Part shown: in pieces, positions 5,145 to 60,828 of the stretch
Layout of the letters: every line of letters starts with the position of its first letter
Numbering within the stretch: position 1 is the first letter of the stretch
Assembly: GCA_036630325.1 (NCBI GenBank)
Contig: CP142734.1
Location: 682,001-746,000 of the forward strand
DNA length: 64,000 bases
Origin: Vairimorpha necatrix
Lineage: Eukaryota
Direction of reading: 5' to 3'
Notes under the pieces: model-generated
The model's input: the letters and a program-made list of their open reading frames with translations, nothing else
Databases searched by the model: none
Told to the model about the DNA's origin: nothing
Translations under genes and position numbers: made by a program

Positions 5145-6790
5145 AAAACTGCTTATTTGATTTAGTGATGTACTATACACTCTCTACCTCTTCCTGAAAA
5201 AACTTTCGTTTAACGAGGCACAGTGGGTAGTTTCGTTTGCATATCACTCTCCGTTCGCTTAATTCAATTTTATGCTCGACTATTTGTTTTTTTCTTGAAC
5301 TTTCCAATTTCTTTAAATAGCATTAATTTGTAATTATTATAGTTCGTAGATCGATTAGTTATTATTGAGTATGTAGATTCCTTTTCAAGATTTAAAAGTC
5401 TAGAAGGCGCAATAGTTTTATTTTCAACTTTCACTGACTGATTCCCGTAGTCTATTCTAACTCCATGCTTCATCACAAAGTCTCTTCCTAATATTATGTC
5501 GCCTTCAAGATCTTCCACTACAAATCGCTTTGTCCTTTAGTTATACACATTAATTTTTATCTTAGTGTCTACTAAGTTTTCGATCTCAGTGCTTCCAAAC
5601 ACTGCTCTCGGGTTGACTCCTTGCACCGGCACAAGTCTTCATTTACGACTAGATCGTTGTTTTTAAAGGAGTTCAATGCTCTCGAATCAAATAGTATCTT
5701 CACTCTTTCTTCTTTGAGTGAACCTTCTACTGTATAAAAGTTTGTGTCCTCGGACACCGAACCTGCTTTTATAGATAACTATTTCTTTTCCTCGTGTTTG
5801 CAGTCTCTGAACAAGTGTCCACCTCCACACTTGAAACGCACTAACTGTCTTTTGGTATTGTTAGTTTTACTCTCGGAGCCTGACTTAGGATCATTTACTT
5901 CTCTTGGTCGTGATAAATCAATTCTTGTCTTTAATGTCTCAATTAATCTGTGGTATCCACCACTGAGGAAAGTATTTAAAATGATTTTATTTATTATTTT
6001 GTTTGTTCTTTCCATTACTCCGTACCCCTCTCCGGATAAATTGATTAAATAAATGTTGGAGGGAAAATTGGACGAATTTGGAGGGAAAGATTTTAGAAAT
6101 ATATTTTATGATATTTGGTATATCATATAATCTTATATTATAACTGTAGATTTTCAACAGTTCTTTCCACGACGTAGCGTCCTCCACTCTTTCTTTCGAG
6201 GATAATGGGAAATATTTGGGCAACTTAGCTATTATATCCGTGATATCAATTCTAGCTTTCTTATTATGCTTACTAAGCTCGTAATAAAACTCTATTATGT
6301 TCTGAGACTTGGGCCCGTATATAATTTTTTGTAAAATATTTGTACAGAATTGTTTCTTCTCGGAGCTCTTCATTCCCGTACTTGTTAAGAAATTCTTGTT
6401 TAAAATCTGCGAAGGCCAACACTTCATCTTCAACCATGGCCTCGTACTATAGCAATGCCGAATCTCTCAAGTACTTCTTTATGTACTTCATTAGTTTGAG
6501 ATCGATCCACTCACCCTCGAGGTAACTGAATTGGTTCAGCCATATCCAGGCATCTTTCCCAATTTCTCCTCGGGAATACAACATTCTGTTCGTTGTGATT
6601 CTCATTCTTTCCATCATACATTCCAGTTCGTTGGTTCTGGTCCCGTTGTCGCCAGTGTTACCAGCGAGAGAAGATTTGCTTTTATAAGTAGTAGGTTTAT
6701 TTGGCATTCTTATTTTTGGGGGTTATCCTTAAATACTTTTCTTTGTTTGTTTGTTTGTTTACATGACGAGCTATGACAGTAAACAAACAA
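5145..6790 (-). mobile_element. Non-autonomous gypsy element (degenerate gag + protease only)
   Basis: LTR end GGTAACA + PBS TGGCGACAAC at ~6656; gag pieces 6447-6707, 5987-6433, 5779-; protease LFDSRA / ILGRDF; PPT GGAAGAGGTAGAGAG at 5194-5180 followed by TGT. 5' boundary approximate. Confidence 0.7.
5949..6127 (-). repeat. Solo LTR inserted in gag
   Basis: TGTGGTAT...ATATCATA termini, perfect TSD TAATC; removal restores gag ...YNIRLIETLK... Confidence 0.85.
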
Positions 6791-6814
6791 TCAATAATGT
6801 TAAGGAAGGCACTT

Positions 6815-7051
6815 TGACATATCCCAATTCGAAATATGTCTCTAAAATATTTTTATTTACAATTTTTTATTTAGGTTTTTTAGCATGGGGTTCTTCCCTG
6901 ATATTGTTGTCTGTTTTTTCTGTCTGGTGTTCATCTTTTAAGTTGGTTGTGTATGGGTAAGGGCTGAAATTATATTTATAGTTTTATATGTTTGATCTTT
7001 AAACAAACAAACAATTATTCTTATGGATCTGTGCTGCACAAAGATACCACA
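6815..7051 (-). repeat. Solo LTR related to 9812-10077
   Basis: TGTGGTATC...TGTCA on minus strand, perfect TSD CACTT. Confidence 0.9.
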
Positions 7052-7208
7052 CACTTCAGCCTCATAACAAGCGGATCTGATATATTTAATAATAGTATGA
7101 CTTTTTATTGTTTTTAATTTGAATATACCCAAAAGTGCTTGGCTTCATTCTCATTGATTCTACTATTCTTCATACCCATCAAAGAAAAAACATTTATATA
7201 CTAAAATA

Positions 7209-9053: not shown

Positions 9054-10094
9054 GGCTAAAGTCCACTTTAGCACGCAAAATTTGATATAGGGGTTTTTGT
9101 GTTTTTTTTGCTTCTTTTTAAAAATATGGAGGAGAGAATTTTGACGAGAGAAGAATTAGAAATCATATATAATGATTTAATGAGTAAGTTCTCGACTTAC
9201 CCCCACCCCTAAAAAAATAAAAAAAAATAAAAAAATAAATTATTTGACCCATAATGAGAATTAAAGAATTCAGAAAACTCATCTATAAAAAAATGAGTTA
9301 ATGCAATTTTTAATTGCAAAAAAAACATTTTGAGGGTTCCTATGTGCAATAAATGCAATATACCAATGACTCAAAATCGGACCAACACTGAAAACTATCG
9401 TTGTTATTCAAGACGTGAAGGTAAAAAATGTTCTAACAAAAGAACCATAATGAAACAAAGCGTTTTTAAGAACTCAAAATTGCCTATTGAGGATCTTTTA
9501 ATATTGCTTTGCGAATGGGTAAAGGGTTCAAGTAATTTGGCCGCCACGTTAGAACTTGATATAGGTAAATGTACGGTATCAAGATGGTTTACGCGTTTTA
9601 ATAACGCCGTGTACGTCTGCTATTCAACATATATAAACAATCAAACGATTGGCGGCGTCGGTTGTATTATTGAAATTGATGAAACTTTACTTGTAAAAAG
9701 TAAAAAACCATGCGGGAAGGGTTCTTCAATATCAAGTATGGGCAGTTGGAGGCGTTGTGAGAGGAAATGCGAATTCTTTTTTCTTTGAAATCGTAGAAAA
9801 TAGAACAAGAGTGATGTATCCCACTCTGAAATACGTCTCCAAAATACTTTTAGTAAAATTCAGTTTATTATTAATATTTTTATTGTTTAATCCAGGTCTG
9901 TCCCCGGTCGTTGTTCGGTCTGCTTCCTTAATTCTTTGTTGGTTGTTTTTCATCTTGTATTGTGGGTCAGGGCCAATTTTTATTTATAGCTTTAATTGTT
10001 TATTTGGTAAACAAACAAAACAAAACAAAACAAAACAAAATTAATAAATGTGTGGATCTTTAAGCAAGGATACCACAACCTGCCCTCTCCATTC

Positions 10095-10925
10095 TCAGGC
10101 CTGCAAATCAGTTGGTTTCGTTTTTATATTGTCAACATGTATCCACTCCTTCCTTTCGTTAATTTTTATCCAATTCTTTTTCTTACTCACTTCTGTAACC
10201 ATGTAAGGCCCAACGTAACAATCGTCAATCTTATTGCCTGTAAAATTCTCGACAAATATGGTATCTCCAACCTCTAAGGTGTTGTGCTCTTTGCTACTGA
10301 TATTTTCGGCCGCTCTGTCGCCTTTCTCGTCCGACCTTATTGTTATTTTAGGTTTATGATCTTTAGTTATTCTGTCCATGTCTAAGGCTGAATATCCTCT
10401 TAACACTGCATATGGTTGTTCTTGAATTCCCCTATGAAAATTTATATTTAGTCGTCTCATAATTAATTTTGTGACCAAATTTATTTCTTCGCCTTTATAC
10501 ATTCTGAGAACTTCGGCTATGGTCTGATTAAGCCTCTCGCTTATTCCGTTGGACGAAGGGTGATATGCTGGCGTCGCTATTTTCTTGATATTATTTTTTG
10601 TTAAGAATCGATCAAATTCCGCACTTGTATACTGCTTACCGTTATCGCAGATTAATGTTTGCTGGTAACCAAATTTCGTAAACCATTTCTCAAACTCTCT
10701 CGTCAGTTCTTTAGTGGTTGATTTCTCCAATAGTGTTACTCGCGTGTATCTACTGTATATATCTGTTATTGTCAGAAAGAATCCCCGTGTACTAAGTAAC
10801 GAATTTTCGTACTCTGCCAACTCGAAGGGACCAAAAATGTCTGTGCTAATCTTATCCATCAGCTTATCTGACTCAATTTTATACTTCTTCTTTTTCGTGT
10901 TTTCATCCTTTTGCATATTATGCAA
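10095..10925 (-). CDS. pol: Integrase core (frameshifted continuation of pol)
   Basis: DIFGP, CDNGKQY, SNGISERLN, GPY motif. Confidence 0.9.
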   Translation of the reverse strand: MHNMQKDENTKKKKYKIESDKLMDKISTDIFGPFELAEYENSLLSTRGFFLTITDIYSRYTRVTLLEKSTTKELTREFEKWFTKFGYQQTLICDNGKQYTSAEFDRFLTKNNIKKIATPAYHPSSNGISERLNQTIAEVLRMYKGEEINLVTKLIMRRLNINFHRGIQEQPYAVLRGYSALDMDRITKDHKPKITIRSDEKGDRAAENISSKEHNTLEVGDTIFVENFTGNKIDDCYVGPYMVTEVSKKKNWIKINERKEWIHVDNIKTKPTDLQA

Positions 10926-12694
10926 GTTTTACAATTTTTAACTGTTTCTGAAATCTTTCGTTTAATGTCTTTTATGTTATAGACATTTCTGATGTTCTGA
11001 TACATTACGGTTACTCCGGGATGAACAGTAAATTCATGTATTATCTTCAGAAATTCCTTAACGTTGTTGTCTTGTATTATATATCGATTATTCTCGTCTT
11101 TTAATTGTTTTCCATTTTCTTGTACTACCAACTTTTTCCTTATATATTTTTTTAGATCTTCCATGTCCTCGAATTTATCTATCATATAACAACGTGATAG
11201 TTTATCGGCTATGTGATTAGATGTTCCTTCAATCGTGGTCAGTTCTACATCGTATTCGTTTAGAATTAATTTCCATCGTTCGGTTCTTTTTGAAATTTCC
11301 TTATTTTCAAATATGCAATTTCTACTATCAGTCTGTAACTCTATCTTGTATCCCTGTATTAATGTTCTGTAAAATTCCAATGTTTTAACGATGGCAAACA
11401 TTTCTTTCTCTACAATCGTATAATTAAGCTCAGACTGCGAAAATTTTCTGCTATAATAGCCTATTATGCCGCGTTCTTGGAATAAGACTGCTCCCATCCC
11501 GTTATTTGACGCGTCGCATTGTATTGAGAACTTTTTGCTAAAGTCGGGCAGTCTTAGCTGTGCTGTAGTTTTGATCTCTTCTTTTATCTCTTTTAACGCC
11601 AAGTTTTGGGCGTCTCCCCATTTCTCTTTGCAATTTTTTTTCAATAGGCGCGATATACAAGAGACTCGCCTACTTACATCTGGTAAGAAATTGCGATACC
11701 AGGTGATTATTCCCATTATCTTCTGTATATCCTTTTTCCTGTATGGGATTGACTCTTCGTTTAATAGCTTATCGATATTTTTAGTATCTATTCTGATCCT
11801 GTCGTTTTCAATCACGTTTCCAAGTATTTCTAGTCTCTTGGTCGCAAACATGCTTTTTTCAAAATTTATTTTAACTCTGTAGTCCATTAGTCGGGTTAAT
11901 ACCTCTAGTAATTTCTCATTATGTTCTTTAGGAGTTGACCCATATATCACTATGTCGTCTATATAAACGATTATATTTTCGATTCCGTGTAATATATAAT
12001 TAATCGTCTTTTGGAATAATTTGGGTCCTGATTTTATTCCAAATGGTATTCGTTTATATCTGTATTGTTCTCCAAAAATCGTAAAGCTTGTAATGTCTCT
12101 GCTACTCTCTTCAAGTTCTAGTTGGTTAAACCCGTTTTTTAAATCAATTTTGCTGTAATAAGTGTTTCCTCCAAGTTTATATAAACTTTCAAAAATTTTT
12201 GGTATTATACATATTTCATCTTTTATAAATTTGTTAACTGTACGATAATCAACTACTAACCTCAGTTCCTTATTTTTCTTTTCGATAAAAAATGAAGGGC
12301 TAGCATAATAGTTTCTACCTCGTTCAATGATATCGTTAGTCAGTAACCTTGATATTTCCTTTCTAGCATCAGCCTCGTACTTTACTGGTACGGTATAGTA
12401 TTTAAGTTCCAGTCTATGGTCTCTAATTTTTTCATCAATATAAAGGCTTGGCGGTTCTACCTTAATTTTATCATGTTCTTCATTCTTTTTTATATATTCG
12501 GTCAATCTACGTGGTATATTCGTTTCATTTAAAATTTTCGATTCTTTTATTAATAAAATTCTGTCATATAGTATAGCATCTATTTCATCTGTTTCTATCT
12601 CTTCTGCGCCGATCATTGGTAAAATAGCGTTGTTTACAATGATTCTTTTGTTTTTATAGTCAAGTAACCAGCCGTTGTTTAGTAAAAAAATCAC
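10859..12694 (-). CDS. pol: Pol: reverse transcriptase, RNase H, integrase zinc finger
   Basis: LRLVVDYR, KIDLKNGF, YIDD, CDAS, ADKLSR, H-H-CC. Confidence 0.92.
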   Translation of the reverse strand: MIFLLNNGWLLDYKNKRIIVNNAILPMIGAEEIETDEIDAILYDRILLIKESKILNETNIPRRLTEYIKKNEEHDKIKVEPPSLYIDEKIRDHRLELKYYTVPVKYEADARKEISRLLTNDIIERGRNYYASPSFFIEKKNKELRLVVDYRTVNKFIKDEICIIPKIFESLYKLGGNTYYSKIDLKNGFNQLELEESSRDITSFTIFGEQYRYKRIPFGIKSGPKLFQKTINYILHGIENIIVYIDDIVIYGSTPKEHNEKLLEVLTRLMDYRVKINFEKSMFATKRLEILGNVIENDRIRIDTKNIDKLLNEESIPYRKKDIQKIMGIITWYRNFLPDVSRRVSCISRLLKKNCKEKWGDAQNLALKEIKEEIKTTAQLRLPDFSKKFSIQCDASNNGMGAVLFQERGIIGYYSRKFSQSELNYTIVEKEMFAIVKTLEFYRTLIQGYKIELQTDSRNCIFENKEISKRTERWKLILNEYDVELTTIEGTSNHIADKLSRCYMIDKFEDMEDLKKYIRKKLVVQENGKQLKDENNRYIIQDNNVKEFLKIIHEFTVHPGVTVMYQNIRNVYNIKDIKRKISETVKNCKTCIICKRMKTRKRRSIKLSQIS

Positions 12695-13937
12695 TTCCTA
12701 AGATCATTTTTTCTGGCAAATTCTTGAGAATATGTACATCTTCATAAGTCACTTTATTTAGTCCCGCAAGTCTTATTTCCACTCTGGCCTTTTTATTAGT
12801 CTTTCCTTTTGCTCCGTTCCCAAATATAAGTGATATTTCGTCAGTTTCTTGTGTCTTTATTTTTAACTTATCAGCTATTTCGGCACTCATAAAGCTCTTA
12901 TTCGCTCCGCTATCGATCATTATGTCAATTGGAGTTTCGTTGATGGATCCCCTTAATTGAGTCTTCTCAAAATTCTGAACGTTTTCCTTTATAAAGTACA
13001 CGTTTCTATTGTCTTTATTATCGTTATTTCTTTTGTAAAAATCTTTATCATATTTAGTGCATTCCTCAGTGGTGTGGTTAGAATATTTATGCAACTTGCA
13101 GTATTTGTCTTTTTTAAATTCTGAATGGTTATTATGCATTGGTCTATTATCATTACTATTGATGCTGCGAAATTCTCTAATCTCTTTAGCTCTTATCGAA
13201 ATTTTTATTTCTAAGCCCTTTAAAAATTCAAATGAAGCTTGGTAACTACCGAAGCCATATTCCAGTACTCTTCCGTACGTGAACTTCCCCAAGCCGGCAT
13301 GGAAAGCTTCCTCAAATAGTCTGTCAACCTCTTCATCCATTAGTTTTTCCATTGTCCTTACGATAGTTAGATTTTGTTTAATCGCGTCATAGTATTCTTG
13401 AATTTTCGTATAGTTTGTCTGGTGTATATTTAACAATTTTCTTCTGTAGTATCTTCGTTCCTCTAAAGGAAATTTTACCGAAATTAAATATTTCTTAATC
13501 TCATTCCATGTTTCATATTTATTGTAGTCCATAAGTTTATCGTCTTTTATCAGTTGTCTTAATATTGCTAACTGTATTCTTTTATCCCATTTGTTAACTT
13601 CTATTAATGTTTCAATTTCTTGGCACCATTTTAAGATGTCCAAACTGTCGATGTCTTCTATAATTTTTATTTCTTGGCTAAGTTTGTCTTCTAGTCCTTC
13701 TATCTTCATTGAGAAGGTTAGTGATTTAGTGTTAAATTGCTGTTCTTTTTTCTTCGTATCGTATTCTTTTGGGTTCTCGTCTTTTGAGCTCAAATTGATG
13801 TATCCCACTCTGAAATACGTCTCCAAAATACTTTTAGTAAAATTCAGTTTATTATTAATATTTTTATTGTTTAATCCAGGTCTGTCCCCGGTCGTTGTTC
13901 GGTCTGCTTCCTTAATTCTTTGTTGGTTGTTTTTCAT
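12660..13937 (-). CDS. gag: Gag + aspartic protease
   Basis: CKLHKYSNHTTEEC knuckle, IDSGA protease motif, ILGSDF; starts within the 5' LTR. Confidence 0.9.
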   Translation of the reverse strand: MKNNQQRIKEADRTTTGDRPGLNNKNINNKLNFTKSILETYFRVGYINLSSKDENPKEYDTKKKEQQFNTKSLTFSMKIEGLEDKLSQEIKIIEDIDSLDILKWCQEIETLIEVNKWDKRIQLAILRQLIKDDKLMDYNKYETWNEIKKYLISVKFPLEERRYYRRKLLNIHQTNYTKIQEYYDAIKQNLTIVRTMEKLMDEEVDRLFEEAFHAGLGKFTYGRVLEYGFGSYQASFEFLKGLEIKISIRAKEIREFRSINSNDNRPMHNNHSEFKKDKYCKLHKYSNHTTEECTKYDKDFYKRNNDNKDNRNVYFIKENVQNFEKTQLRGSINETPIDIMIDSGANKSFMSAEIADKLKIKTQETDEISLIFGNGAKGKTNKKARVEIRLAGLNKVTYEDVHILKNLPEKMILGSDFFTKQRLVT

Positions 13938-15178
13938 CTTGTATTGTGGGTCAGGGCCAATTTTTATTTATAGCTTTAATTGTTTATTTGGTAAACAAAC
14001 AAAACAAAACAAAACAAAACAAAATTAATAAATGTGTGGATCTTTAAGCAAGGATACCACAAAGAGCTACTCTTGTTAAATTAATCACAAGAAAAATTGC
14101 TCCGGGGACCACAATTGTGACAGATTGTTGGCGCGGCTATAGTGATATTCAAACAATCTGTGTAGAATATGAGTATCTACATTTGACTGTGAATCACAGC
14201 CAAAATTTTGTTGATAATATAACTGGTGCGCATACTCAGACTATAGAGGGAATGTGGTCGGTTCTTAAAAGAGAACTAAGAAAAAGCGGAACTAGTCATG
14301 GTACTATTATGAATCTTATAAGAAAGATTTACTATAATAGATTAAAATTAATATATCGTGAAAATCTATTAGATAAAATGTTAGAATTTTTTGAAATAGG
14401 TAATTTTAGTATTTTAGCATATAAAAGTATTCCTAAAATAGATTTTACAATTGTGGCATAATTTTTTTTTTAGGGGTGGGGGGTGTAGGTCAAGGACTTC
14501 ACCGATTTAATATAGAAATTTCAAAATAAAACTTGTGATATATGTTATGGTAGAATGAGGACAGAAAGAAAAGACAGTAGTATCTTAAAGTGTACTTGGG
14601 AAGATTGTAAAAAGTCAATTTCAATTTGGCATGATACGTTCAATGATAATTGTAAACTCAATCATATAACATGTTTACAGATACTTAACATGTGGGTTAT
14701 CGGTTATTCTCGGAAGCATATTTGTCAAATTTTAGGTTGTACGAAAAAATCAATATCTTCATTATTGAAAAAACTTAAGGAAATATGCATTTACGATAAA
14801 TATTTATCTACTCTGAACATGCTTGGTGAAGAAGGGATAATAGTTGAGATCGACGAATCAAAAATTGGAAAAAATAAATACAATAGAGGTAAATTAGTGA
14901 AAGGCTTCTGGTGTTTTGGCATGGTCGAACGAACCATAGAACGTAGAATCATAATGCTTCATATTAAAAAAAGGGATAAAGAAACACTTACTGATCTTTT
15001 GGTGAAATATGTAAGTAGAGATAGCATTGTATATAGCGATATGTGGAGAGCCTACAATTCTTTGGGGTACTACATTTAGCTAACATAATAAAATTAATCA
15101 TTCATTGTATTACAGGGACCCAAATACGGGAGTTCATACCAATACCATAGAAGGTAATTGGCGTTCCCTTGAAAATTC

Positions 15179-16389: not shown

Positions 16390-16626
16390 GAAAATTCTAT
16401 ACCTATAATAGAAATAGATCAGTTAATAGTGCAAAACTTTGTTTATTTAGGTATGTGCTCTAGAAAATAATTCTAATTCTGTTTTTGATGCATTATTAAA
16501 TTTATTGTTCTAATTTTAAATTTTGTTCCTTCCTCCACATTTTCTCTCCTACATTTTTTTAAAAAAAGGGCCAAAAAACACAAATAACCCTATATCGAAT
16601 TTTGCGTGCTAAAGTGGACTTCAGCC

Positions 16627-16998: not shown

Positions 16999-17444
16999 AC
17001 AAAGTGCATTAAAAGCAAGTGTTAAGAGTATTAGATGAGGTTGGTTTAAATTTAAATGCGTCAAAATGTGAATAAAGAAAAGAAGAGCTAAGGATTTTGA
17101 GAGTAACAGTTGGGAATAATGATATTAGAATTAATGACGATAGGATTAAGCAAAATGTAGATATGCCTGTGCCCACGTCAATGAAAGATTTGGAATCGTT
17201 TTTGGGATTGATTAATTATTACAGTCGATTTTTGAAAAATGTATTTGAGCATAAAGAATATTTATATGTGTTATAGCCTGATGCTATGTCAAGAATTCTT
17301 GATATTTAATTTTTATCAAAAATTTCATTAATCATATTTTGTGTTTATTTTCCATAATGAGGGGTAAAAATAATAAGGATATATAACATCCCCCCTCCAA
17401 GACGGTAGTCTCATACTAGAACTCATTAATCCCAAGCAGATCTT

Positions 17445-18977
17445 TTAAATCATAATGCCGCTTTTCACGATCCTACCATTTTCCAAACTAACTAAGTACG
17501 AGTCACCTCCGCAAATTTCCTTGATAACACCATATCCTAAAAACCTTCCTTTCTCATACTTACTACAACCCGATAAGTTCTCTTTCTTCGCTACCCTAAC
17601 TCTCTGACCTTTATAGAATTTCTCTCTTTTGCGAGCCACAAACCTCCTACTATAAAATCCTTCAGGTCCATTCTCGATCATAACATGGCCCGTTTCGTCT
17701 CTTGAGGCCTCAAACGGTGTACATCTCAACCCTTCATGATAGCTGTTATTATAACGCCATATACATCTATTAACCTTGGCTTCAAAATCCACAGCATCAT
17801 CTTTCAATATTCCTTCTCTTATGGTTCCTATTACCCTTTCCACTCTTCCATTACTTCTATGACTTTCTACGCTTACTTTCCTATGTAATACATTTTCCTC
17901 TGAACACCAATTCCTCATATATTCATTACTAAATTCTTTACCGTTGTCAGTAATTATTTCTACCGGGTTCATTCCTGATCCACACAACTGTTTTAAAAAT
18001 CCTACAACCGAGCTTCCGCGTTTGTCCTCTATTACTTTTCCCCAAACGATCCTAGTATAATAATCAATCACGACCAACACATATTTCCCTAAATCTCTAA
18101 ACTCAATCAAATCCAAAGCAACCTTTTCAAAATAAAATCTTGAACTAACAAAATTACAACCACCACTCTTTTTCCTATTATGTATTTGGCAAACTTCACA
18201 CTTCTTTAAAACATCCTCGATATCCTTCTTCATACCCGGCAAATAAAATTCAAACTTCATTGCATAGTACACTGGTCCTAAACTTCTATGTCCCAAATTT
18301 TCATGAGCATTGACAATTAAACCTTCACGCAATTCTTTCTTTGGAATCTCCGCTTCTCTACCAGAGTCAAATACCCAAATTTCCTTTCCATCAACAACTT
18401 TAACATGCTTGTCCCATTTACCCTGTGCCTGTTTAATACTTCTCTCCTTATTCATTAGCGTTTTCTCATTTTCATGTACCCTACTCAGTGCATCTGCTAC
18501 AACCATGGTACTAGGCTCTCTATATTCAATACTAAAGTCGAACTCTTGAATCTTTTCAATCCACCTGTTAATTCTATTATTGTTAAATGCTGGTTTATTT
18601 CTAATCTCGATCAATGCCTTATGATCAGTTTCTACCCTAAATCTTCTTCCGCGTAGTTCATATTCAAACTTTTTAATTCCCCAAAAGACTGCATACATCT
18701 CCTTCTCACTGATTCCATATCTCTTTTCCGTAGGCGTAAACTTTTTTGATGCCCACTGTACTGGTACCCAATTACCTTGATCATCTTCCTGCATTAAAAC
18801 AGCACCCATTCCAACATTACTCGCATCCGTGCGTAACAAAAATTCCTTATTATAATTAACAATTGCTAAACCTTTTAAATCCCTAATCACTTCCCTTAAA
18901 CTAATATATTCTTTTTCCATTTCTTCTGTCCATTTCCAATTACTTCCTCGTCCTTTAAGAGAATCCGTCAACGCCAA
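17445..18977 (-). CDS. pol: RNase H + integrase
   Basis: TDAS, TDHKAL, ADALSR, HHCC, TDNGKEF, SNGRVER. Confidence 0.92.
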   Translation of the reverse strand: MALTDSLKGRGSNWKWTEEMEKEYISLREVIRDLKGLAIVNYNKEFLLRTDASNVGMGAVLMQEDDQGNWVPVQWASKKFTPTEKRYGISEKEMYAVFWGIKKFEYELRGRRFRVETDHKALIEIRNKPAFNNNRINRWIEKIQEFDFSIEYREPSTMVVADALSRVHENEKTLMNKERSIKQAQGKWDKHVKVVDGKEIWVFDSGREAEIPKKELREGLIVNAHENLGHRSLGPVYYAMKFEFYLPGMKKDIEDVLKKCEVCQIHNRKKSGGCNFVSSRFYFEKVALDLIEFRDLGKYVLVVIDYYTRIVWGKVIEDKRGSSVVGFLKQLCGSGMNPVEIITDNGKEFSNEYMRNWCSEENVLHRKVSVESHRSNGRVERVIGTIREGILKDDAVDFEAKVNRCIWRYNNSYHEGLRCTPFEASRDETGHVMIENGPEGFYSRRFVARKREKFYKGQRVRVAKKENLSGCSKYEKGRFLGYGVIKEICGGDSYLVSLENGRIVKSGIMI

Positions 18978-19070
18978 TGTACGTTTTGCATAATTATCAA
19001 TATGATTTCTAAACCATCCAGCCAGCCCAAGAAACTTCCTAACATCTGATACACACTCCGGTTTGGGAAA

Positions 19071-19508
19071 TTATAACGCTTCATTTTGCTTTATTTCAGA
19101 TGGCAGTATCTCCTTGCCATTAACTGTTACTCCTAACAACATCACCTCTCGTTTACATAATTGAACCTTAGCCAAATTAATTTTCATATTATTCTCCTCT
19201 AATATATCCACAGCCTCTTTCGACAATTTGTCGTGACCCTCTCTTGTCTTACTATGAATCACAATATCGTCCATATAAATTTCGATTCCCTTACCAATAA
19301 ATTTTTCAAAAATCCCATTCATTATTCTTTGTAATATCTGCGGAGAGTTTTTAAACCCCATGACCATCGAATTCCACTCGTATACCTTTTTATTAAACTC
19401 AAAAGCCGTCTTAAACCTTTCCTTCTCTTCAATCTCAATACTATAAAACCCCTCCTTTAGATCTATCACGGTAAAAAAATTCAGATCCCTGTGTACTTCT
19501 AATAACAT
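19071..19508 (-). CDS. pol: Reverse transcriptase core (frameshifted piece)
   Basis: IDLKEGF, MGFKNSP, YMDD. Confidence 0.88.
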   Translation of the reverse strand: MLLEVHRDLNFFTVIDLKEGFYSIEIEEKERFKTAFEFNKKVYEWNSMVMGFKNSPQILQRIMNGIFEKFIGKGIEIYMDDIVIHSKTREGHDKLSKEAVDILEENNMKINLAKVQLCKREVMLLGVTVNGKEILPSEIKQNEAL

Positions 19509-20490
19509 CTCTTATCCTAGTTAACTCATAAGGGTCCTTCTCTACAATGTCATTAAGAGCAATTAAATTACTTACTAATCTTATATCACCATTCGGTTTC
19601 TCAATCGCTCTAATGGGATTTCTCCAGTCAGATGTCGACCTTCTAATTATCTTTCTTCTTTCCAAACTATTAATATAATCTTCCGTCTTCTTCAACAAAG
19701 CCTGAGCTATAGCCTGCCCTTTTTTAACAACTTTCTTGCCTTCTTGAGTCTTGATAATATATTTTTCAACCTTACAAAAACTAATATCTTCATCCTCTCT
19801 TCCTCCTACCCGTGAAATAATCTCCTCTAAATACGCGATGCCTCTTACATCCCTTCTCAACAGAACTCTCTTATTATTGTCCCTTTTGCTATAATCTTGT
19901 ATATCCCCTAAATTTTTCTTCTTACGTTTTCCACCATCAACATTATAATAATCACATTTGTCCGAATTGGAATCGTCATCACATTTACCCTCTAAGTCTA
20001 ATTGCACTTTACATTTACCAACATAATTAAAACTACTTTTATTTCTTCTGTCTTCAGAATCTTGCCTCATTCCCCTACAAAATCTAACACTATGGCCTAA
20101 CTTCCCACAATTGTAGCAACGCATATTCTTTTTATTTTCCCCACGAGACAACTTATTCTTCTCCTCAAATTTAGCCCATAACGCTAGGGACAACTCTTCA
20201 AATTCTTTTTTTCTCACTTGTTCCTTTTCCTCCTGAATAGCTAGCAACTCTAATTTTTCCTCAATTTCCTTCCAACTACCCTCTTGCGAGATCCTCTCAA
20301 CAATAAAATTTCTCAATAAAATAGAACCTCTCCTAAAAATTTCTAACTTAAATCCACACTCATCAATTTTCTCTAAAAACAACTCATAAACAATCCTTTT
20401 AACCTCTTTTAATAATATTCTAGCCTCTTGGCCACGGTCCTCCTTTGTAGACCCATTTTCTGGTATCGCCCCCATGTGTTTATTTTCCAT
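19441..20490 (-). CDS. gag: Short Gag (CCHC) fused directly to RT N-terminus
   Basis: CYNCGKLGHSVRFC then WRNPIRAIEKPNGDIRLVSNL; ATG inside LTR. Confidence 0.85.
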   Translation of the reverse strand: MENKHMGAIPENGSTKEDRGQEARILLKEVKRIVYELFLEKIDECGFKLEIFRRGSILLRNFIVERISQEGSWKEIEEKLELLAIQEEKEQVRKKEFEELSLALWAKFEEKNKLSRGENKKNMRCYNCGKLGHSVRFCRGMRQDSEDRRNKSSFNYVGKCKVQLDLEGKCDDDSNSDKCDYYNVDGGKRKKKNLGDIQDYSKRDNNKRVLLRRDVRGIAYLEEIISRVGGREDEDISFCKVEKYIIKTQEGKKVVKKGQAIAQALLKKTEDYINSLERRKIIRRSTSDWRNPIRAIEKPNGDIRLVSNLIALNDIVEKDPYELTRIRDVIRSTQGSEFFYRDRSKGGVL

Positions 20491-20712
20491 AATGAGGGGT
20501 AAAAATAATAAGGATATATAACATATTTTACAAAAAATATTTAAATAAAAGTTTTAAAAGAAGGATAAGATAAAATGAGAAGAGAAACATTTGATCAAGA
20601 GAGGGCCATACTAGGACAAGGGCCAAGGTACAATGAATATAACAATATTAAAAATAAAAGCATTATAAGTATAATTGAAATCTGTTTTAAAGACGGGTGT
20701 TTTCCCCGTGGG

Positions 20713-21810
20713 GGCGCTAGGGCCTATTCCCGTGTAATGAACGTAAAAAAACGGCATTTCCCGGAAATAGGCCCTAAACTGCGAAATTTTTACAACCCCC
20801 AAAAATGAATAATTTTGAAGAAGAACCAAAAAATTCGAGATCTGACATTTTTTCTTCAAATAAAGCTGCCATGGCCTTTATTCAAAGGCATGACTTACTT
20901 GAAGAATTTAAAACATGCTCGAAATGTTATGAGAGCATGGTTTTGGAACATGATATTTCTTATTCGAACGGTTTTCGATTCAGATGTACTAACTTATTTT
21001 GTAGAAAATCCAAATCAGTTTTTGAGGTGCTAAAAATTTCAAGTCCAAAGATAGACACAACCGAATACTTATTCATAATATATTCATGGCTCAAAAAAAA
21101 TTATGAATATAATATTAATAAAAAAAACTTCGGTTTTTAAATACTATAAAAAGAATTAAAAGGAATATTATAGAAGTATTAACTGAAGATAATAAGAATA
21201 CATGGGAGAAATTGAGGCCAGAGCACCCAATACAAGTGGATGAGAGTGTTATAATAAAAGGAAAACTTATTAAGTCAACATCTGAAATGTATGATTCAAT
21301 TAGTAAAGCTACTTTGATAATTGGCGCAGTAGAAAAAAAAAACTAGAAACTAGTTCTTAAAGTTTTACCAAACAGACAAAAAGAAACTTTCTTCGACCTT
21401 TTCTCTGAAAATATTAGTCCTATGTCTGTAATAAAAACAGATGGGCGTAGATCCTACCCATACGCTGTTGCTGGGATTGGTGGAGTACATAAAATCGTGA
21501 ACTATGTGGAAGGATTCACCAATTCTGATGGAGACCACACTAATTTAATAGAATGTGAGTGGTCTCATTTCAAATCGGACATCAAAACGAGGAAAGGAAT
21601 ACCAGGTTATTCAATGCCAGGGTATATAGAAGAATATGTTTGGAGGAGAAGAAATTTAGTTACCCATGATTCCAAAGCCTATAAAGACGCCTTTTTAACT
21701 CTCTTAAAACTTTTAATTTGAAATATATAATTGAGTTTTTTTTCTTTAATTTTTTGTTAAAGGGTCCCCCCTTTAAACAAAAAAATTACCCGGGAATAGG
21801 CCCTAGAACC
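20713..21810 (+). mobile_element. Merlin transposon
   Basis: TIR GG..CTAGGGCCTATTCCCG, TSD CCCGTGGG, transposase pieces 20805-21140 and 21422-21721 (TDG, HTNLIECEW). Confidence 0.9.
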
Positions 21811-22808
21811 CCCGTGGGCATGACAATATGGTTTACTGAAGAAGGGAAATGAAGGAAAGTTTAAGACGATTGAGGATGATGAGAAGAACAAGAAATCAAT
21901 ATAGAATTGAAGTTAGAAGTTAGGAAAACAACATGGTTGGCGTTGCTCTGAAGGAGAGGGAAATTTATTTTATACACGGACGCTTCTGACATAGAGAGTG
22001 GGGCGATTTTGACACAGATACAGGATGGAGAAGAGAAAATTGTTAGGTTTTTTTTAGTAAAGTTCATTAATGGGAAATGAACTATTCTGCTACAGAAAAG
22101 AAATGTTGAATGTAATTAAGGCATTGACAGAGTTAAGATCGGATTTAATTTGGATGAGTTTGAGCTTCGAACGGATCATAAGGCATTGCTGTGGTTGTTT
22201 TCGTTACGAAATATGAACGGAAGATTAGCAAGATGGTCATTACTGTTACAAGAATATGATTTTGAAATAAAACACATTAAAGGTGAAGAAAATCCAGCGG
22301 ATGTATTAAGTAGAACTGCTTGTATTGATGCAGTATTAGAGGTTTAGGAAGTGTCAGTAGAAAAGGGCTTTAAGAAACATGAGATGTTAGCGCATGGTTC
22401 AGCAAAGGCAGTTTGTTATGGTTTGAAAGGTGATTAAAGAGAGATATCAAAAGTAAAAGTAAGAGATATACTTAAGAATTGTGGGGTTTGTAAACAGATG
22501 GGCGTTTTAAAATTTAATAGATCAAATAATAGTATTCAATCATTAGGTACTTTTAAATTATGGGAGATTGATTTAATGGGTCCATTGAGATTGGTTTCAG
22601 AAGAAAACAAGTTTATTTTAACAATGAATGATCATTGGACAAGATGTTTGAGTGTGTAGGGGTGAAGGCAAAAGATATGGGAGTTATTGTTGAAGCAGTT
22701 GAACGATGCATATTGAAAAAATATGGCATACGGGGGAAGATTTTGTCGGATAACGGTAAAGAGTTCAGGAACAGAATTACGGCGGAATTGGCCAATAAGT
22801 ATGGATTT

Positions 22809-23109
22809 TGTAGTATTATAAATGCCACAAATTATTTATTTTTTATTTTATCAATTTTCCCTTTTTGGAATAGACCATTCGACCGGTCTATTCCAAAAAT
22901 CAAAATTATTTCCTTTTTGCCCCGACCCCCCACAAAATCATGAGACAAGATAAAGATCATTACCCTTGGAATCTACGACCAAGGAAGGGCCTCAGAGCCA
23001 GGGACCAGTATCCCATTACGGATGCCCTACGAGGCTTTAATCAACTAAATGAAGTAAAAAATCTAATCGAACTATATTTGTCCAGAGGTAGCTTCTCTGG
23101 ATTGCGTCA
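22809..23109 (+). repeat. Solo LTR in integrase
   Basis: TG...CA termini, TSD GATTT, homologous to 35950-36274. Confidence 0.9.
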
Positions 23110-25221: not shown

Positions 25222-26495
25222 TGTGGTATTTCTCAGTGGGACCTTCCCCGAGCTGAAAAAACTCTCTACTATATTTGTTATAGTTTTATAATTTTGTTTA
25301 ATATAAGTTTTGTAGGGCTAATGTCGGCTTTAGGAGAAAATTTTCGATATAGGGTTTTTTTGCCCCTTTTTTTCAAAAATGGAGGAGAAAAAATGTGGAG
25401 GAAGAAACAAAAATAAAAATGAAAACAATAAATTTATTAATGCTTCAAACACAGAACTAGAAGAATTTCTTTGAAGCATATACCTGAATAAATAAAGTTC
25501 CGCACTCCGAACTGATCTATTTCTATTTGGTATAGAATTTTTTAAAGATCGCCAATTACCTTCTATGGTATTGGTATGAACTCCAGTAAGTGGGTCTCTA
25601 AAGTGTAGAGAATGATTTACCATTAGATGTTGGTTAAATATTAAGCCTAAATTACGGTAGGCTCTCCACATATCGCCATAAATTATACTATTTCTGTCTA
25701 CATATTTTAACAAAAGATTAGTTAGCGTTATTTGGTCTCTTTTCTTAATATATATAAATATAATTCGGCGGTGTATGGTACGTTCGACCATACCAAAACA
25801 CCAGAAACCTTTCACAATTCTACCTCTATTATTCTTATTCTTGCCAATCTTTTCTCATCGATTTCCACTACTGTATTTTCACCGCCTATAACGCCAATAC
25901 TAGATAAATATTTTTCATAAATATCCAATTCTTTTAACTTTTTTAGTATAAATGACACAGATTCCGCTAAACAACCCAAAATTTGACAAATAGATTTACC
26001 GGATATCCTAGAATCCACATATTAAGTATTTGTAATACTGTAATATGGTTAAGTCTAGAATCTTGGAATAAAGTACCTTTCCATATTGAAACTGTTTTTT
26101 TACAAGTACTCCATTTACACTTCAAGATAAGTTTTTGTTTATTCTTTATTATCATCTGAGCATCACATAATTCACAATTCTTTATTTTATTTTTGGTTAT
26201 TAATGCATTATATATGTTTTCTAATTGCTCTCTTGTTTGAATTTTCTCCTCCATTTTTGAAAAAAATGGGCAAAAAAAACAAAAAAAACCCTATATCGAA
26301 AATTTTCTCCTAAAGCCGACATTAGCCGTTTTGTAGTTGCTAACATATTTATTGTTGTTTTTGTTGTTGTTCATTCTTCTTGAAATACTTGCCCCTAAAC
26401 GAATTATTTTTATTTATACAAAAATAATTTCTAGAAAATTCGTTGAGATTATTGACATCTCAATATGTCAATAATCTCATGTGGTTAATACCAAA
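25222..26495 (-). repeat. Solo LTR interrupted by a Merlin
   Basis: TGTGGTATT...AATACCAAA, TSD ATATT; 15-bp-stem hairpin at 26444-26479. Confidence 0.75.
25316..26327 (-). mobile_element. Merlin transposon
   Basis: Perfect ~40-bp TIR GGCTAATGTCGGCTTTAGGAGAAAATTTTCGATATAGGG, 9-bp TSD GTTTTGTAG, transposase in 3 frames 26254-25330. Confidence 0.95.
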
Positions 26496-35949: not shown

Positions 35950-36274
35950 TGTGGTATTATAAATACCACAAATTATTTATTTTTATTTTATCAATTTTCC
36001 CTTTTTGGAAAATAGACCATTCGACCGGTCTATTCCAAAAATCGACTATTTATTTAAATTTATTTCTCACCCCCACAATTCGAAGGATGACAACACACTT
36101 TAACAACAAACATCCTAATTACCATTACCCTTGTAACCCAATGACAAGGAAGAGCAACCAAGCTAGGGAAGACTTAATGCCCCGTACTAATGGCCCAACG
36201 AGCCACAACAATAATAAAATTATTAATATCATAGAATTGTATTTGCTCAGAGGCAGCTCCTCTGGGTTTCGTCA
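35950..36274 (+). repeat. Solo LTR inside the Ginger element
   Basis: TGTGGTAT...CGTCA, TSD CCAAG. Confidence 0.9.
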
Positions 36275-46748: not shown

Positions 46749-46789
46749 GTCTTTTTAAGATTAAAAATCAAAGAGAGTATCTTGGAAAT

Positions 46790-47725: not shown

Positions 47726-47799
47726 ATTAATATTATATTGGCAATTAATTATAGTGATATAGTTATCATATAGTTATAATAGTTACATCTTAAATAGTA

Positions 47800-57409: not shown

Positions 57410-57572
57410 CATTAAATATTTATTTTAACGTTTGATGTTTTTTTTCTTTTTTGAATTTTTTTTACTATTATATTTAGAGATGCAATATAAATGTTAAATT
57501 GTAATAACCATGTGTCAATATAAATAATAAAAAATCGTTAAGACATAAATAAGTAACAAAATAAAATTTTTT

Positions 57573-60090
57573 TGTTCCCTGAAGGCAAAGATGGGGCAGT
57601 CTGAGGCTTGGTATTTGAAAAAGAATTCTTTTTAAGAGACATAATATTTATTTATATAATTTCTTTATATAGTTTTATTCTCGGCCCGAAACAATCATGA
57701 TTCAGGTTGAGATGAAACGTTTGAAATATCTTGTTTCAGTCCTTTATTGGTGCTGCAAGTGATGACGGTAACACTCTTCCCTCTTCTAATTGGAGCTGTC
57801 CGTCTAAGATCGACTGGGCATTCTCTGACAAATTTTCTTCTGTCTTGAATGTTACGAAATCACTGCGGTTAATGTGATGTTCTGTGTCATCCTTCAAACT
57901 TTTGATTAGATACGAGCCTTCCGTTTTCCTCCATATTGTTATGTATAGTCAAATGTAGATCATGTTGAGTTCACTGCTATTCATTATAACTATAGTATCT
58001 TTAGCATTAACAACATGCCTATCATCTCTCGTAGATCGCCTTTCCCCCTTTGTAAAGTGTTCTCTATTCCGTGTGTTGATTATTTCCAGATTTTCCTCGG
58101 TTTTTAGTCTTTTTAAAGCTAAATACTCTAATGGGATTGTAAATAACATTTTGAAGTAGATTGTCAAGACGTGTATCATATTTAGTAAAACTGGTTTTGT
58201 ATCATTTAGTATTTCTAATGAAGACATTCCGAGTTTTCCGTTCGGTAACAGGCGGTAGTGAAGAAGGCCAAGAGACAAGACATTGTCCCAGTGACTTGAG
58301 TAATTAAACATAAATTTAGATGGTTCTACTAAAAGACTCTGATTTGTTCTCTCCTCTATTATCCCTTTTTCTAGGTCGAGTTGGGTGTATATCTTCGCAC
58401 CGCTCAGATATGTTAAACATTCTTCGATCAGAGGTGGCTGACATACTTCCTTTCCCGTAATCTCGTTAAGTTCTCTGAAATCTATACACAATCGTTTCTT
58501 ACCATCTCGTTTTGGGGCCACTACTATTGGGAAACTCCATCTACTAGTACTATCCTCTATGATACCTTCTTCTAAAAGACGTGATACTTCCTCCTGAACA
58601 AAATTCCTCTCGTCTATACTTAATGAATAATTTCTATTACACACTATCTTAGGTGTGTTTAATTGTATCTTATGTTCAACAAAGTTCGCAGGGGATTTAC
58701 ATGTCAAGTAATTTGATTCATATTCGTGTAAAAGCTTCTGTTTAACGAATATTTTCTTATCCGAAGGCAATCTTTTTAAAAGGCTACTGAGATATAAGTT
58801 TTTGGAAAGAGTACGACTTAATAACTTTATTATTAATCACAATTATTTGGTCGTCGTAGTTCATTCGTATTCCGTGGGTCCTCATAAAATCTCTTCCCAC
58901 AATGACGTCGAAGTTAAGGTCATTTACCACAAGCAAGTCGGCTTTATAGTGGTTTCCTTTCATCCTACATCTTTTTTTTATTTCATCGATCCGAGAATAG
59001 GAGGTGGCGGTTGTTAGTACGGATTCCTCAGTTTTCTTTACAGTTCTGTTTCCTATCAGCCGTCTGTTTATGAAAGAATGAGACGCACCGCTATCGAATA
59101 GTATTCTCACAGGGGTAGTAGTATTGAGGTGCCATTTGATCGTGGTAAATTCTTTGTCTTCTTGAGACTGAATGTCTTCTATTGACATTACCTTCTTGGG
59201 ATTATTTTTAAAGCAATCCTTATACAAATGTTCTCCGCCCCACTTGAAGCAATTAAGTTTCTTTCTTTCGTTGTCTTCTGTTTTGGAAGGGGGAGCCCTT
59301 TGTCTGATCGGCCCACTACTCTCTGTTATCGTCCTCGCCATTTTCGAATGTGACGTCTCATTGGATTGTTGATTTCTCTCGTACCAGTCGAGGAGTTCTT
59401 CCCAAGATTCTGTTGCTTCAGCCCTTTCTCTCAAGGCCAACGGAAAGTGTTTTGCTATTTCCTCGATTGGGTCTTTGACTTCAATATTCGCCCTCTTGTT
59501 CAAAATCATCAGATAGTGTATAAAATCTTCAATGCTTCCTTGCATTGGACCTTCATAAACTTTCTTATAGATAATTTTAATTAGATTCGCGTTTTGCTTC
59601 AGCTCTTCTTTCCCATATTTATTTAGAAATTTTAATTTAAATTCCGCAAAAGAAGTACTGTTATCTTCGATTACGGCTTCGAATCATTTTAGTGCTGATT
59701 CAGAAAGAAAATTTTTAGCATAAGCGAGCATTTTCTCATCCTTCCATTCACCTTCTAAGTATTTGAATGATTTATCCATGGCCATGCATTGTTGTTTGAT
59801 TTGCCATTGTAGGATATCATTCTGAGTCCAGTGTTAACTCCAGGTTTTTCTAATAAATGTTCCATTGTCGTTGGATTCGCAAAGTTGTCGCCAGTGTTAC
59901 CTGAAGGCGAAGATGGGGTAGTCTGAAGCTTGGTATTTGAAAAAGAATTCTTTTTAAGAGACATAATATTTATATAATTTCTTTAAATATTTTATTCTCA
60001 GCCTGAAACAATCATGTTTCAGGTTGAGATGAAACGTTTGAAATATCTTGTTTCAGTCCTTTATTGGTGCTGCAAGTGATGACGGTAACA
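57573..60090 (-). mobile_element. Internally deleted gypsy element
   Basis: LTRs 57573-57773 and 59895-60090, PBS TGGCGACAAC, gag/PR (LFDSGA) 58784-59545; ORF 57949-58770 fuses RT N-terminus (to LDLEKG) to integrase tail, with no YxDD or RNase H. Confidence 0.92.
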
Positions 60091-60828
60091 CTTTTATTGT
60101 GTGGTTTATCTAATAGTCATTTATTTATAATAATAATATTTCTTTAAAAGGTACTTGACATGTTTTATTCTAATTGAATTGATACTTAATATTTTTGTTA
60201 AAAAATGGGCAGGGAAAAAACATCCAAAATTTCCGCTTGTGTAAAGCAAAGCCGAAATAGTCCTCCGGCCCGGGAGACATTTTAAAAAATTCATTTTGGC
60301 CCACAGCTTTATGTATTTGACCACCTCTGGTTTATAGTGTGGGCAAAATAGAGTAAAATGTTTATAACAAATTATTTTCTATAAAAAACATTTATAGGAA
60401 AAACAAAATTAAATAAAGTGGTCATTAATACTGTGAGGCTGGCTTCTGCCGCCTGCTTTAAGTGCTTTTAATTCAAAATGATTTTATTGTTACTTGGTGG
60501 CGTGGAGTTTTCCATCTCCGATTCTTTCCTTAGCTTCATCCTCTCGAAGGTGATTTTGCTTAAATAATTAAGAATGACCGTTTTGACATGTTTGGCAACT
60601 GAGGTCGTGCACAGGGATGTGTCCCGTCCTGAGGTAGTTCTCTAGGATGCTGTGGCACTTGGATACATCGATCCCTGTAATATAATCCTTAGTTGGAAAA
60701 GATTTATTTATTTTCTCTTGATTGCTCTTGAAAGGCATGGGGTTAAAAAATTATTTCTTTTTATATTTTTGAGGAACAAAATATTTGAAAGATGATTTTA
60801 CGTGTGGTAATACCACATTCTGCCTCTC

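Follow-up and report, generated by a model that had tools for sequence, protein, structure and literature searches.

Long terminal repeats that appear to encode the start of Gag, and a palindrome at the primer-site position, in a Ty3/gypsy clade of Vairimorpha necatrix

Results

The locus and its intact element

The stretch of DNA analyzed here, called the window throughout, comprises 64 kb of Vairimorpha necatrix (NCBI GenBank assembly GCA_036630325.1, contig CP142734.1, positions 682,001 to 746,000 of the forward strand), and all coordinates are counted from its first letter. It is AT-rich (23-40% G+C in 2-kb bins) and consists of nested mobile elements, namely Ty3/gypsy retrotransposons, Merlin/IS1595-type DNA transposons, and fragments of others. 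A preliminary description made from the sequence had proposed that eight dissimilar families of long terminal repeats (LTRs) encode a conserved peptide at their distal ends, that this peptide is an amphipathic helix under selection, and that the LTRs represent a gypsy clade with protein-coding LTRs. All eight peptides were found by translation at the places given for them. The results presented below indicate that the eight LTRs belong to a single Ty3/gypsy clade in which the LTR would combine the functions of promoter, 5' coding exon, and polyadenylation region, and in which the helix is probably maintained by selection on the protein; directly beyond the LTR, at the position of a tRNA primer site, the clade carries a translated palindrome of 12 nucleotides (nt).

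The only intact element that carries the motif, element A, is made up as follows (TSD, target-site duplication; RT, reverse transcriptase):

9812-14061, minus strand: element A, with two LTRs of 266 nt each that are 100% identical
13796..14061, minus strand: 5' LTR, 266 nt, TGTGG...ATCA; TSD CTCTT (AAGAG on the plus strand), script-checked
9812..10077, minus strand: 3' LTR, preceded by the purine tract gagaatggagagggcagg
10095..13937, minus strand: coding part, with gag-protease 12660-13937, RT-RNase H 10859-12616, and integrase 10095-10916
13935..13937, minus strand: gag start codon, within the 5' LTR and 142 nt ahead of the LTR end (13796)
13803-13835, minus strand: motif KSILETYFRVG (Gag residues 35-45), with a second copy in the 3' LTR at 9819-9851

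The Pfam matches of A (RVT_1, RT_RNaseH, Integrase_H2C2, rve, and gag-asp_proteas, with Retrotrans_gag weak and under the cut-off) run along 13937 to 10095 in the order gag, protease (PR), RT, RNase H, integrase (IN); integrase thus follows RT-RNase H, which is the order of Ty3/gypsy and not of Ty1/copia. Besides the gag ATG and the motif, its 5' LTR contains a TATAAA box, two CCC runs, and two in-frame AATAAA hexamers; Gag residues 1-47 are LTR-encoded, as had been proposed. An in-frame stop 10 codons above the ATG, also within the LTR, closes the reading frame, because of which initiation would be expected within the LTR itself; another in-frame Met occurs ~30 codons past the LTR. A contig from the public run X1 links position 9806 to 14062 with a 5-base overlap, which is the empty site of A, and the insertion is therefore polymorphic between samples and recent. 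In variant copies from public runs X1 and X2, residues 3-34 vary freely, with an in-frame 3-nt deletion, and among the differences listed for these variant copies there are no motif changes.

The other seven LTRs

The motif recurs in seven further LTRs, six of them solo:

6815..7051, minus strand: solo LTR B, 237 nt; TSD AAGTG (element orientation); motif KNILETYFELG at 6822-6854
5949..6127, minus strand: solo LTR C, 179 nt; TSD GATTA; degenerate start TATGATAT; ATG 6013-6015; motif KIILNTFLSGG at 5956-5988
17269..21825, plus strand: solo LTR D', LTR of 262 nt; TSD ATATG; ATG 20575-20577; motif ISIIEICFKDG at 20665-20697
22809..23109, plus strand: solo LTR E, 301 nt, inside an integrase gene; TSD GATTT; ATG 22940; motif KNLIELYLSRG at 23057-23089
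35950..36274, plus strand: solo LTR F, 325 nt; TSD CCAAG; ATG 36087; motif INIIELYLLRG at 36222-36254
25222..26495, minus strand: solo LTR G, LTR of 253 nt; TSD AATAT; ATG 26372-26374; motif NIVESFFSSG at 25246-25275
60608..60817, minus strand: 3' LTR H, its element extending beyond the window; ATG 60736-60738; motif HSILENYLRTG at 60622-60654

LTR status was assigned from TG..CA-type ends together with a matching 5-bp TSD, script-checked for A, B, C, D', E, F, and G. LTR H was identified as a 3' LTR because it follows an integrase open reading frame (ORF) and a purine tract; the gag C-terminus of the same element lies at 63651-63995, the 5' partner falls outside the window, and the 3' boundary is uncertain (60608 in this analysis, 60615 in the preliminary description). 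The placement of the peptides at distal LTR ends is thus borne out by seven LTRs with verified TSDs and by one 3' LTR.

Several of these LTRs are parts of nested insertions. LTR B lies in an LTR of another gypsy lineage (J/Z type, about 6640-6710, minus strand), and when LTR C is taken out, collinearity with a related gag at 1234-1991 is restored. LTR D' is split twice, by a gypsy element at 17340-20523 (TSD TATTT) and by a Merlin transposon at 20713-21809 (9-bp TSD CCCCGTGGG); its start at 17269, given in the preliminary description, is confirmed by the TSD ATATG, and a reading of D' as mere sequence ahead of the Merlin gene was dropped once both insertions and their TSDs had been read. LTR G is likewise split, by a Merlin transposon at 25316-26327 (9-bp TSD). 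In both D' and G the frame is open once the insertions are read across.

A start resembling TGTGGTAT is common to all eight LTRs. A and B are related (0.77 identity in a permissive global alignment), and E and F are 92% identical over their first ~105 nt (22809-22911 versus 35950-36055) while their coding R-U5 parts are far more diverged, which suggests chimeric (recombinant) LTRs or very uneven rates along the LTR. Judged by their sequences, the eight LTRs represent one clade, with about six independent families and two close relatives (the pairs A/B and E/F), so that of the eight dissimilar families first proposed about six stand as independent.

Two observations concern the LTR ends. In several LTRs the first 15-21 nt form a self-inverted repeat (TGTGGTAT..ATACCACA; for example the 36254-36274 region of F and 60797-60817 of H), and ATACCACA recurs at the LTR 3' end in C and G. 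The sequence beyond LTR H (60595-60608, minus strand) reads H-D-L-S, like the H-D-x-L-N-S of the family, yet it is not palindromic and was treated as flank; the likeness is either chance or the remnant of a tandem arrangement.

Occurrence of the motif and its open frames

The strict pattern I[LIV]E.[YF][LF]..G matches the six-frame translation of the window 6 times, against 0.05 matches expected from 100 second-order Markov simulations, and a loose pattern matches 12 times against 0.68 expected in the same simulations. Three of the 12 loose matches fall outside these LTRs, two in a duplicated Merlin copy (where the match contains a stop codon) and one at 16336. Within the LTRs the position of the motif is nearly constant, 7-24 nt short of the 3' end in all eight. 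In seven of the eight, the frame set by an ATG within the LTR stays free of stops for 22-62 codons, includes the motif, and reaches the final LTR base; for comparison, of all 2203 ATGs in this ORF-rich window 14% are followed by a frame open for 45 codons. The exception is LTR B, whose frame is broken. A degenerate DNA version of the motif gave no match in viral contigs; three matches in metagenome contigs were set aside as unrelated (two identical bacterial membrane-protein-like ORFs, and a third frame with stops).

Constraint at the codon level

When the eight sequences are aligned on the motif, identity is 0.65/0.61/0.35 at codon positions 1/2/3, the value for the third being close to random. 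Summed over 28 pairs in the gag frame, the proportion of synonymous differences (pS) is 0.80 and that of nonsynonymous differences (pN) is 0.37, figures to be read with the facts that the 28 pairs are non-independent, that the motif has just 11 codons, and that pS is saturated. In the +1 and +2 frames of the same bases there is no such excess (pS 0.34-0.42, pN 0.46-0.51). The result is unchanged when the close relatives B and F are left out (0.65/0.60/0.32 for six families). The other two sense frames contain stops in 6-7 of the 8 sequences, and the codon-aligned antisense frame has a lower score and one stop. All four glycine codons (GGA, GGG, GGT, GGC) are used in the motif, and its serine is encoded by AGT or AGC in the window and by TCT in a relative from outside it, locus L007. 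Since synonymous change is in excess in the gag frame alone, the motif would be under purifying selection as a peptide; the comparison argues strongly, though not quantitatively, for conservation at the protein level, as the preliminary description had anticipated.

Gag relatives and predicted structure

A search of a protein library with Gag residues 1-320 returned 156 proteins at E<=0.001 (an earlier word-based protein search had given 2 matches), and many of the 150 matches listed begin at query residues 21-36, that is, at the motif. The closest is a 98%-identical protein annotated in Vairimorpha necatrix that starts at the homologous Met; further annotated relatives occur in Nosema granulosis and Dictyocoela muelleri, and the alignment of the D. 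muelleri protein (39% identity overall) begins exactly at the motif. In an iterated alignment with a hidden Markov model (HMM), 88 rows span the N-terminal region, and most of these by eye carry S-[IL]-[FLY]-x-x-Y-[FL]-x-x-G, after which comes either Y-[IV]-N-L-S-S or the longer R-x-P-x-x-[HY]-[DN]-x-L-N-S. Residues 38-51 contain 9 of the 13 Gag columns that are invariant in the closest subfamily. The hydrophobic spacing i, i+1, i+4, i+5 is kept in proteins of 20-30% identity. The motif is thus N-terminal in microsporidian relatives as well, and in the closest subfamily no other stretch is as conserved.

The AlphaFold2 model, computed from a 29-row alignment, has residues 1-29 disordered (predicted local distance difference test, pLDDT, <50) and a helix at residues 37-44 (block mean pLDDT 85 and 79), which together with the hydrophobic spacing agrees with the proposed amphipathic helix. 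Past the helix the model has a linker of low confidence, a beta hairpin, and a helical domain predicted with confidence (high pLDDT at 101-261). Foldseek matches of the helical domain are weak, the best being the PNMA2 capsid (E 0.034, prob 0.99), then copia, Arc, and HIV capsid (CA). Gag also carries a zinc knuckle.

A search of genome contigs gave 77 loci, of which the Gag HMM assigned only L006, L007, L008, and L060 to the family. L008 is without its N-terminus; of the follow-up loci, L087 and L089 are without a junction between LTR and internal region, and L085 has one. Loci L006, L007, L060, and L085 (in one metagenome-assembled genome, MAG) and L008 (in another) are full-length retrotransposons of this microsporidian-type family, and the MAGs are recorded as bacterial (Clostridium sp., Anaerovoracaceae); these contigs presumably represent eukaryotic contamination of the bins. 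A polyprotein search of viral contigs gave two distant loci (27% identity), which were not used.

Start codons, AATAAA, and the other LTR lineages of the window

The LTR lineages without the motif provide a comparison:

17340-20523, minus strand: element D, a complete gypsy element of 3184 bp; LTRs of 49 nt; TSD TATTT
59895-60093, 57573-57778, and 32244-32446 (reverse complement), also about 6640-6710 (minus strand): LTRs of lineage J/Z
29431-33471, plus strand: element I, LTRs of 121 nt, 97% identical; TSD AATAC; primer site TGGCGACAAAGCC; coding region with many stops

An ATG lies inside the LTR in every LTR lineage seen in the window. The LTRs of D, to our knowledge among the shortest, accommodate in 49 nt a TATATA box, a CCCC run, the gag ATG, and AATAAA, and are directly followed by a TGG-type primer site, TGGGGGCGATACC; the ATG is 16 nt ahead of the LTR end and its frame passes through the primer site into a gag of 349 codons. 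In lineage J/Z the gag ATG is 70 nt ahead of the LTR end, and the frame crosses a tRNA-type primer site, TGGCGACAAC, read as T-G-D-N. The frames of both D and J/Z run on into gag-like sequence. In I, a degraded element, the ATG is 28 nt ahead of the LTR end, and the frame exits the LTR without being continued beyond it. LTR-borne start codons are thus not special to the motif clade in this genome. The LTR start of I, TGTCGTG, is also that of L006, L007, and L060.

Among the 13 LTR families with an ATG, 11 have a TATA-like box 24-44 nt upstream of it (J has a second box at -12), and 10 have a CCC or GGG run within 30 nt upstream, compared with 25% of random 30-nt windows. These arrangements recall those of microsporidian genes, whose 5' untranslated regions (5'UTRs) measure <7 nt and whose start codons are preceded by CCC-like or GGG-like motifs according to PMC2803860. 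AATAAA is in frame as Asn-Lys in seven of the eight motif LTRs, 3-90 nt upstream of the motif, and because of this the Asn/Lys-rich stretch that precedes the motif would be, at least in part, a translated polyadenylation signal.

Three Merlin/IS1595-type families were seen (25316-26327; 20713-21809; 7209-8316 and 23835-24939). Target duplications of 9 bp were verified for two of them, and recent activity is suggested by two copies that are 99% identical to each other.

A palindrome in place of the primer site

13783..13794, no strand assigned: palindrome of A, perfect over 12 nt, TTTGAGCTCAAA, 1 nt past the LTR end and read in frame as (N)-L-S-S

The junction of LTR and internal region is available as DNA in five elements (A, L006, L007, L060, and L085), and in all five it consists of the terminal CA of the LTR, 1 nt, and a perfect 12-nt palindrome of the form nnTGAxyTCAnn (in the four elements other than A the palindromes are TATGACGTCATA, GCTGATATCAGC, GATGAATTCATC, and ATTGAATTCAAT). 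All 30 of the 30 pair cells in the five elements are complementary; three pairs (TGA/TCA) are invariant, and three change on both sides only (9 cells). The resulting covariation score was reached in 0 of 500 shuffles, and sliding the partner destroys the signal. As background, the 64-kb window contains 44 perfect 12-nt palindromes, about 7 per 10,000 positions. In the same five elements the gag ATG lies ahead of the LTR end and the frame is open over both the LTR end and the primer-site position. No TGG occurs within 30 nt past the LTR end in A, L006, L007, and L060, and one occurs at +16 in L085, whereas other gypsy lineages of the window do carry TGG-type primer sites; ARAGORN found no tRNA gene in the window. 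In none of the five elements do pieces of the palindrome of at least 8 nt recur in the 300 nt upstream (LTR), where a Tf1-type complement would lie, and in none is there a second copy of at least 8 nt within 100 nt downstream (the longest match is 6 nt in one element, with none in four).

The palindrome is visible in the protein as well. The central self-complementary dinucleotide may be AT, GC, TA, or CG, giving the middle codon AAT, AGC, ATA, or ACG, and this choice predicts a tripeptide L/M/V-[N/S/I/T]-S. Such a tripeptide occurs at most 22 residues past the motif in 52 of 121 relatives with a helix-like motif, compared with 10.1 expected, and its offsets from the motif peak at 3 and 8. The L-N-S tail of the N-terminal module, which lies beyond the LTR, would thus most likely be conserved through the nucleic-acid palindrome and not through the protein.

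The same layout appears in the part of the Anncaliia algerae consensus sequences (PMC4202319, Supplementary File S1) that was at hand. Eleven passages match one of six palindromic words, and in nine of them a frame opened by an ATG could be read by eye, in most cases with a helix-like motif, and then CA, a single base, and a palindrome that is perfect over at least 12 nt; one element has the identical TTTGAGCTCAAA, and in two the palindrome is in another frame (T-E-F-S and S-E-F-R). The remaining two passages are unrelated. Six further palindromic words yielded no junctions in that part of the supplement, just matches to RT (YxDD-region) and Merlin, and the terms 'PBS' and 'primer binding' are absent from the main text of PMC4202319. 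Within the window, an occurrence of TTGAATTCAA at 3503 was rejected as a chance match; it lies in an APE-like endonuclease stretch ('LCLQET'), with a weak Pfam Exo_endo_phos match in the adjacent ORF, and the stretch is probably part of a non-LTR retroelement.

Discussion

Coding LTRs and their alternatives

The findings are best accounted for by one Ty3/gypsy clade in which the LTR acts as promoter, 5' coding exon, and polyadenylation region and in which the helix is under selection at the protein level, a reading to which we assign a probability of roughly 0.85. Transcription would be directed by the TATA-like box, often with a CCC/GGG run, followed by the ATG, and the gag frame would continue through R and U5 and, past the LTR end, into the putative capsid domain. 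Roughly the first 10-45 Gag residues would form a fast-changing, disordered Asn/Lys-rich spacer that includes AATAAA, and with the conserved peptide the folded part of Gag would begin; the peptide would form an amphipathic helix (hydrophobic i, i+1, i+4, i+5) closed by Gly, which selection on the protein maintains against the drift of the remaining LTR. The near-leaderless mRNAs of the host may be what forces the R-U5-PBS leader (PBS, primer-binding site) to be coding, because with microsporidian 5'UTRs of just a few bases a long untranslated leader would be ruled out. In the motif clade the gag frame goes on to cross the self-complementary 12-nt sequence at the tRNA primer position. The role of the helix is most likely, at the level of a guess, particle assembly. 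The preliminary proposals of a gypsy clade with protein-coding LTRs and of a translation start within the LTR thus find agreement in the gene order, the TSDs, the frames open into Gag, the stop above the ATG of A, and the codon-constrained segment ahead of the LTR end.

Several points weigh against this reading. The transcription start, the start codon used, and translation are deduced from sequence, the codon comparison has the statistical limits given with it, and AlphaFold2 confidence is low for residues 51-70. In LTR B the frame is broken, with a TAA 5 codons ahead of the motif and the upstream ATG out of frame. The helix would not be indispensable to the clade, since the N-termini of L060 and, in the Anncaliia consensus sequences at hand, of retro_BB and retro_BP are short and show the helix motif faintly or not at all. 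Finally, the U-rich motif region lies just past AATAAA and may have a secondary role in 3'-end formation or U5 structure, and small hairpins by eye overlap the last motif codons in D', E, F, G, and H.

One alternative is that conservation is at the level of nucleic acid, the motif region being a U5 cis element (for integrase or RT recognition, 3'-end formation, or an RNA hairpin) and the likeness of the peptides a by-product. The last two motif codons of A, B, and C do overlap the LTR terminal inverted repeat GGATAC..CA, the hairpins just mentioned are short inverted repeats over the motif end, AATAAA is 3-90 nt upstream, and the neighbouring L-N-S tripeptide is apparently dictated by the palindrome. 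An element of this kind does not, however, explain the codon periodicity, the use of all four Gly codons and of both AGT (in the window) and TCT (in L007) for Ser, the great excess of pS over pN in the gag frame only, or a hydrophobic pattern that persists at 20-30% protein identity; and a fold of the R-U5-PBS region of A in which the 5' end pairs with the motif codons was dropped, as it is not significantly more stable than shuffles (z = -1.89) and has no equivalent in LTR E by eye. We consider this explanation improbable. Somewhat less probable still is that the LTR frames are open yet unused, being young and undecayed, with translation starting at a Met past the LTR. The solo LTRs are young, and A has the in-frame Met ~30 codons past its LTR; but purifying selection acts on the motif and on residues 48-78, all ahead of that Met, the same arrangement occurs in elements of other genera, and the LTR ATG is preceded by a microsporidian start-codon context. 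As for a chance origin, in which a loose hydrophobic pattern was picked post hoc from AT-rich sequence, the codons of Ile, Leu, Phe, Tyr, Asn, and Lys are indeed AT-rich and the loose pattern also occurs at three non-LTR sites; the excess of strict matches (6 against 0.05), their constant position near verified LTR ends, and the recurrence of the motif at the N-terminus of relatives leave it hardly any probability.

A role for the palindrome

Because the palindrome varies between elements and yet stays self-complementary, a common host RNA would not be able to serve as its partner, and its likeliest role would be the pairing of two genomic RNAs, that is, dimerization. A further step, possible but offered tentatively and with more doubt than conviction, is that priming by host tRNA has been given up in favor of dimer-dependent self-priming in trans. 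Pairing between two genomic RNAs packaged together would take place at the 12-nt palindrome right after U5, the RNase H of the element would cut the RNA duplex at its 3' edge (compare the Tf1 fold-back), and each 5' fragment would prime minus-strand synthesis on the partner RNA; the palindrome would also be read as L/M-[N/S/I/T]-S because the site lies inside gag.

If these interpretations are correct, a mobile element has been reshaped by its host such that one sequence is promoter, coding exon, polyadenylation region, and integration end. Gene callers and transposable-element tools that treat LTRs as non-coding would truncate these Gags, and solo LTRs would be ready-made promoter-plus-ATG modules beside host genes. 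A palindrome with compensatory variation across several genera points to a manner of starting reverse transcription or of pairing genomes that is not yet worked out.

Comparison with known systems

In the literature searched, which did not extend to the Nbr paper of 2006 (Nosema bombycis) or to the PMC5445492 supplements, neither an LTR-encoded gag start nor a palindromic primer site is described for microsporidian gypsy elements. The start codon of Ty1 GAG lies in the 5' LTR. The clade described here resembles Ty1 (Saccharomyces; Ty1/copia, Pseudoviridae) in that the R-U5 leader is largely coding; it differs in that Ty1 is copia-type and primed by initiator tRNA-Met via a TGG-type PBS, whereas here the order is that of gypsy and a tRNA-type PBS is absent. 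The Ty1 PBS is inside the GAG reading frame (PMC4974528). To Ty3/gypsy (Metaviridae) the likeness comprises gene order, 5-bp TSD, TG..CA LTRs, a zinc-knuckle Gag with a possibly capsid-like domain, and PR/RT/RNase H/IN. In Ty3 the 5' PBS segment adjoins an untranslated 5' leader and binds tRNA-iMet (PMC4974528), whereas in the present clade gag begins within the LTR, and the place of the tRNA site is taken by a palindrome.

The nearest precedent for the palindrome is the Conserved Hairpin Site of the fungal GalEa copia elements, which according to Donnart et al. 2017 (PMC5445492) is a palindrome, CTGATCAGT or CTAATTAGT, that includes the last A of the LTR and lies directly after the 5' LTR, varies at paired positions, and in the authors' view fits no known priming model; a complementary second sequence 12-41 bp downstream forms a hairpin with it. 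Common to both is a palindrome directly after the 5' LTR without a tRNA-type PBS. GalEa differs in its copia lineage and in the inclusion of the last LTR base; here the palindrome has 12 nt, is set off by a 1-nt spacer, is translated, and has no second arm. Were dimer-dependent self-priming to operate, it could also account for the GalEa site.

Self-priming has been described for Tf1/Sushi and is predicted for the Tcn1 and TAR lineages (PMC6317226 and PMC5445492). What the present clade would share with Tf1/sushi is independence from a tRNA primer, with RNA of the element itself as the likely primer; the difference is that the Tf1 PBS is complementary to the first ~11 nt of the transcript, whereas none of the five elements here has such an LTR complement, because of which self-priming, if it occurs, would have to be by palindrome-to-palindrome pairing. 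Short palindromes of the 5' region that are lineage-specific yet self-complementary are known from the dimerization initiation site (DIS) of HIV-1, and the present palindrome, likewise short and 5', variable between lineages and self-complementary, resembles it and the PAL sequences of Ty1, whose RNA dimerization is treated in PMC6844567. Those of HIV-1 and Ty1 are hairpin-loop palindromes beside a tRNA PBS; here the palindrome is at the PBS position and no other PBS is visible. What appears undescribed in the papers searched is thus the combination, in a gypsy clade spread across microsporidia and apparently under the constraint of host mRNA architecture, of two features known separately, the LTR-encoded gag start of Ty1 and the palindrome of GalEa in place of the primer site.

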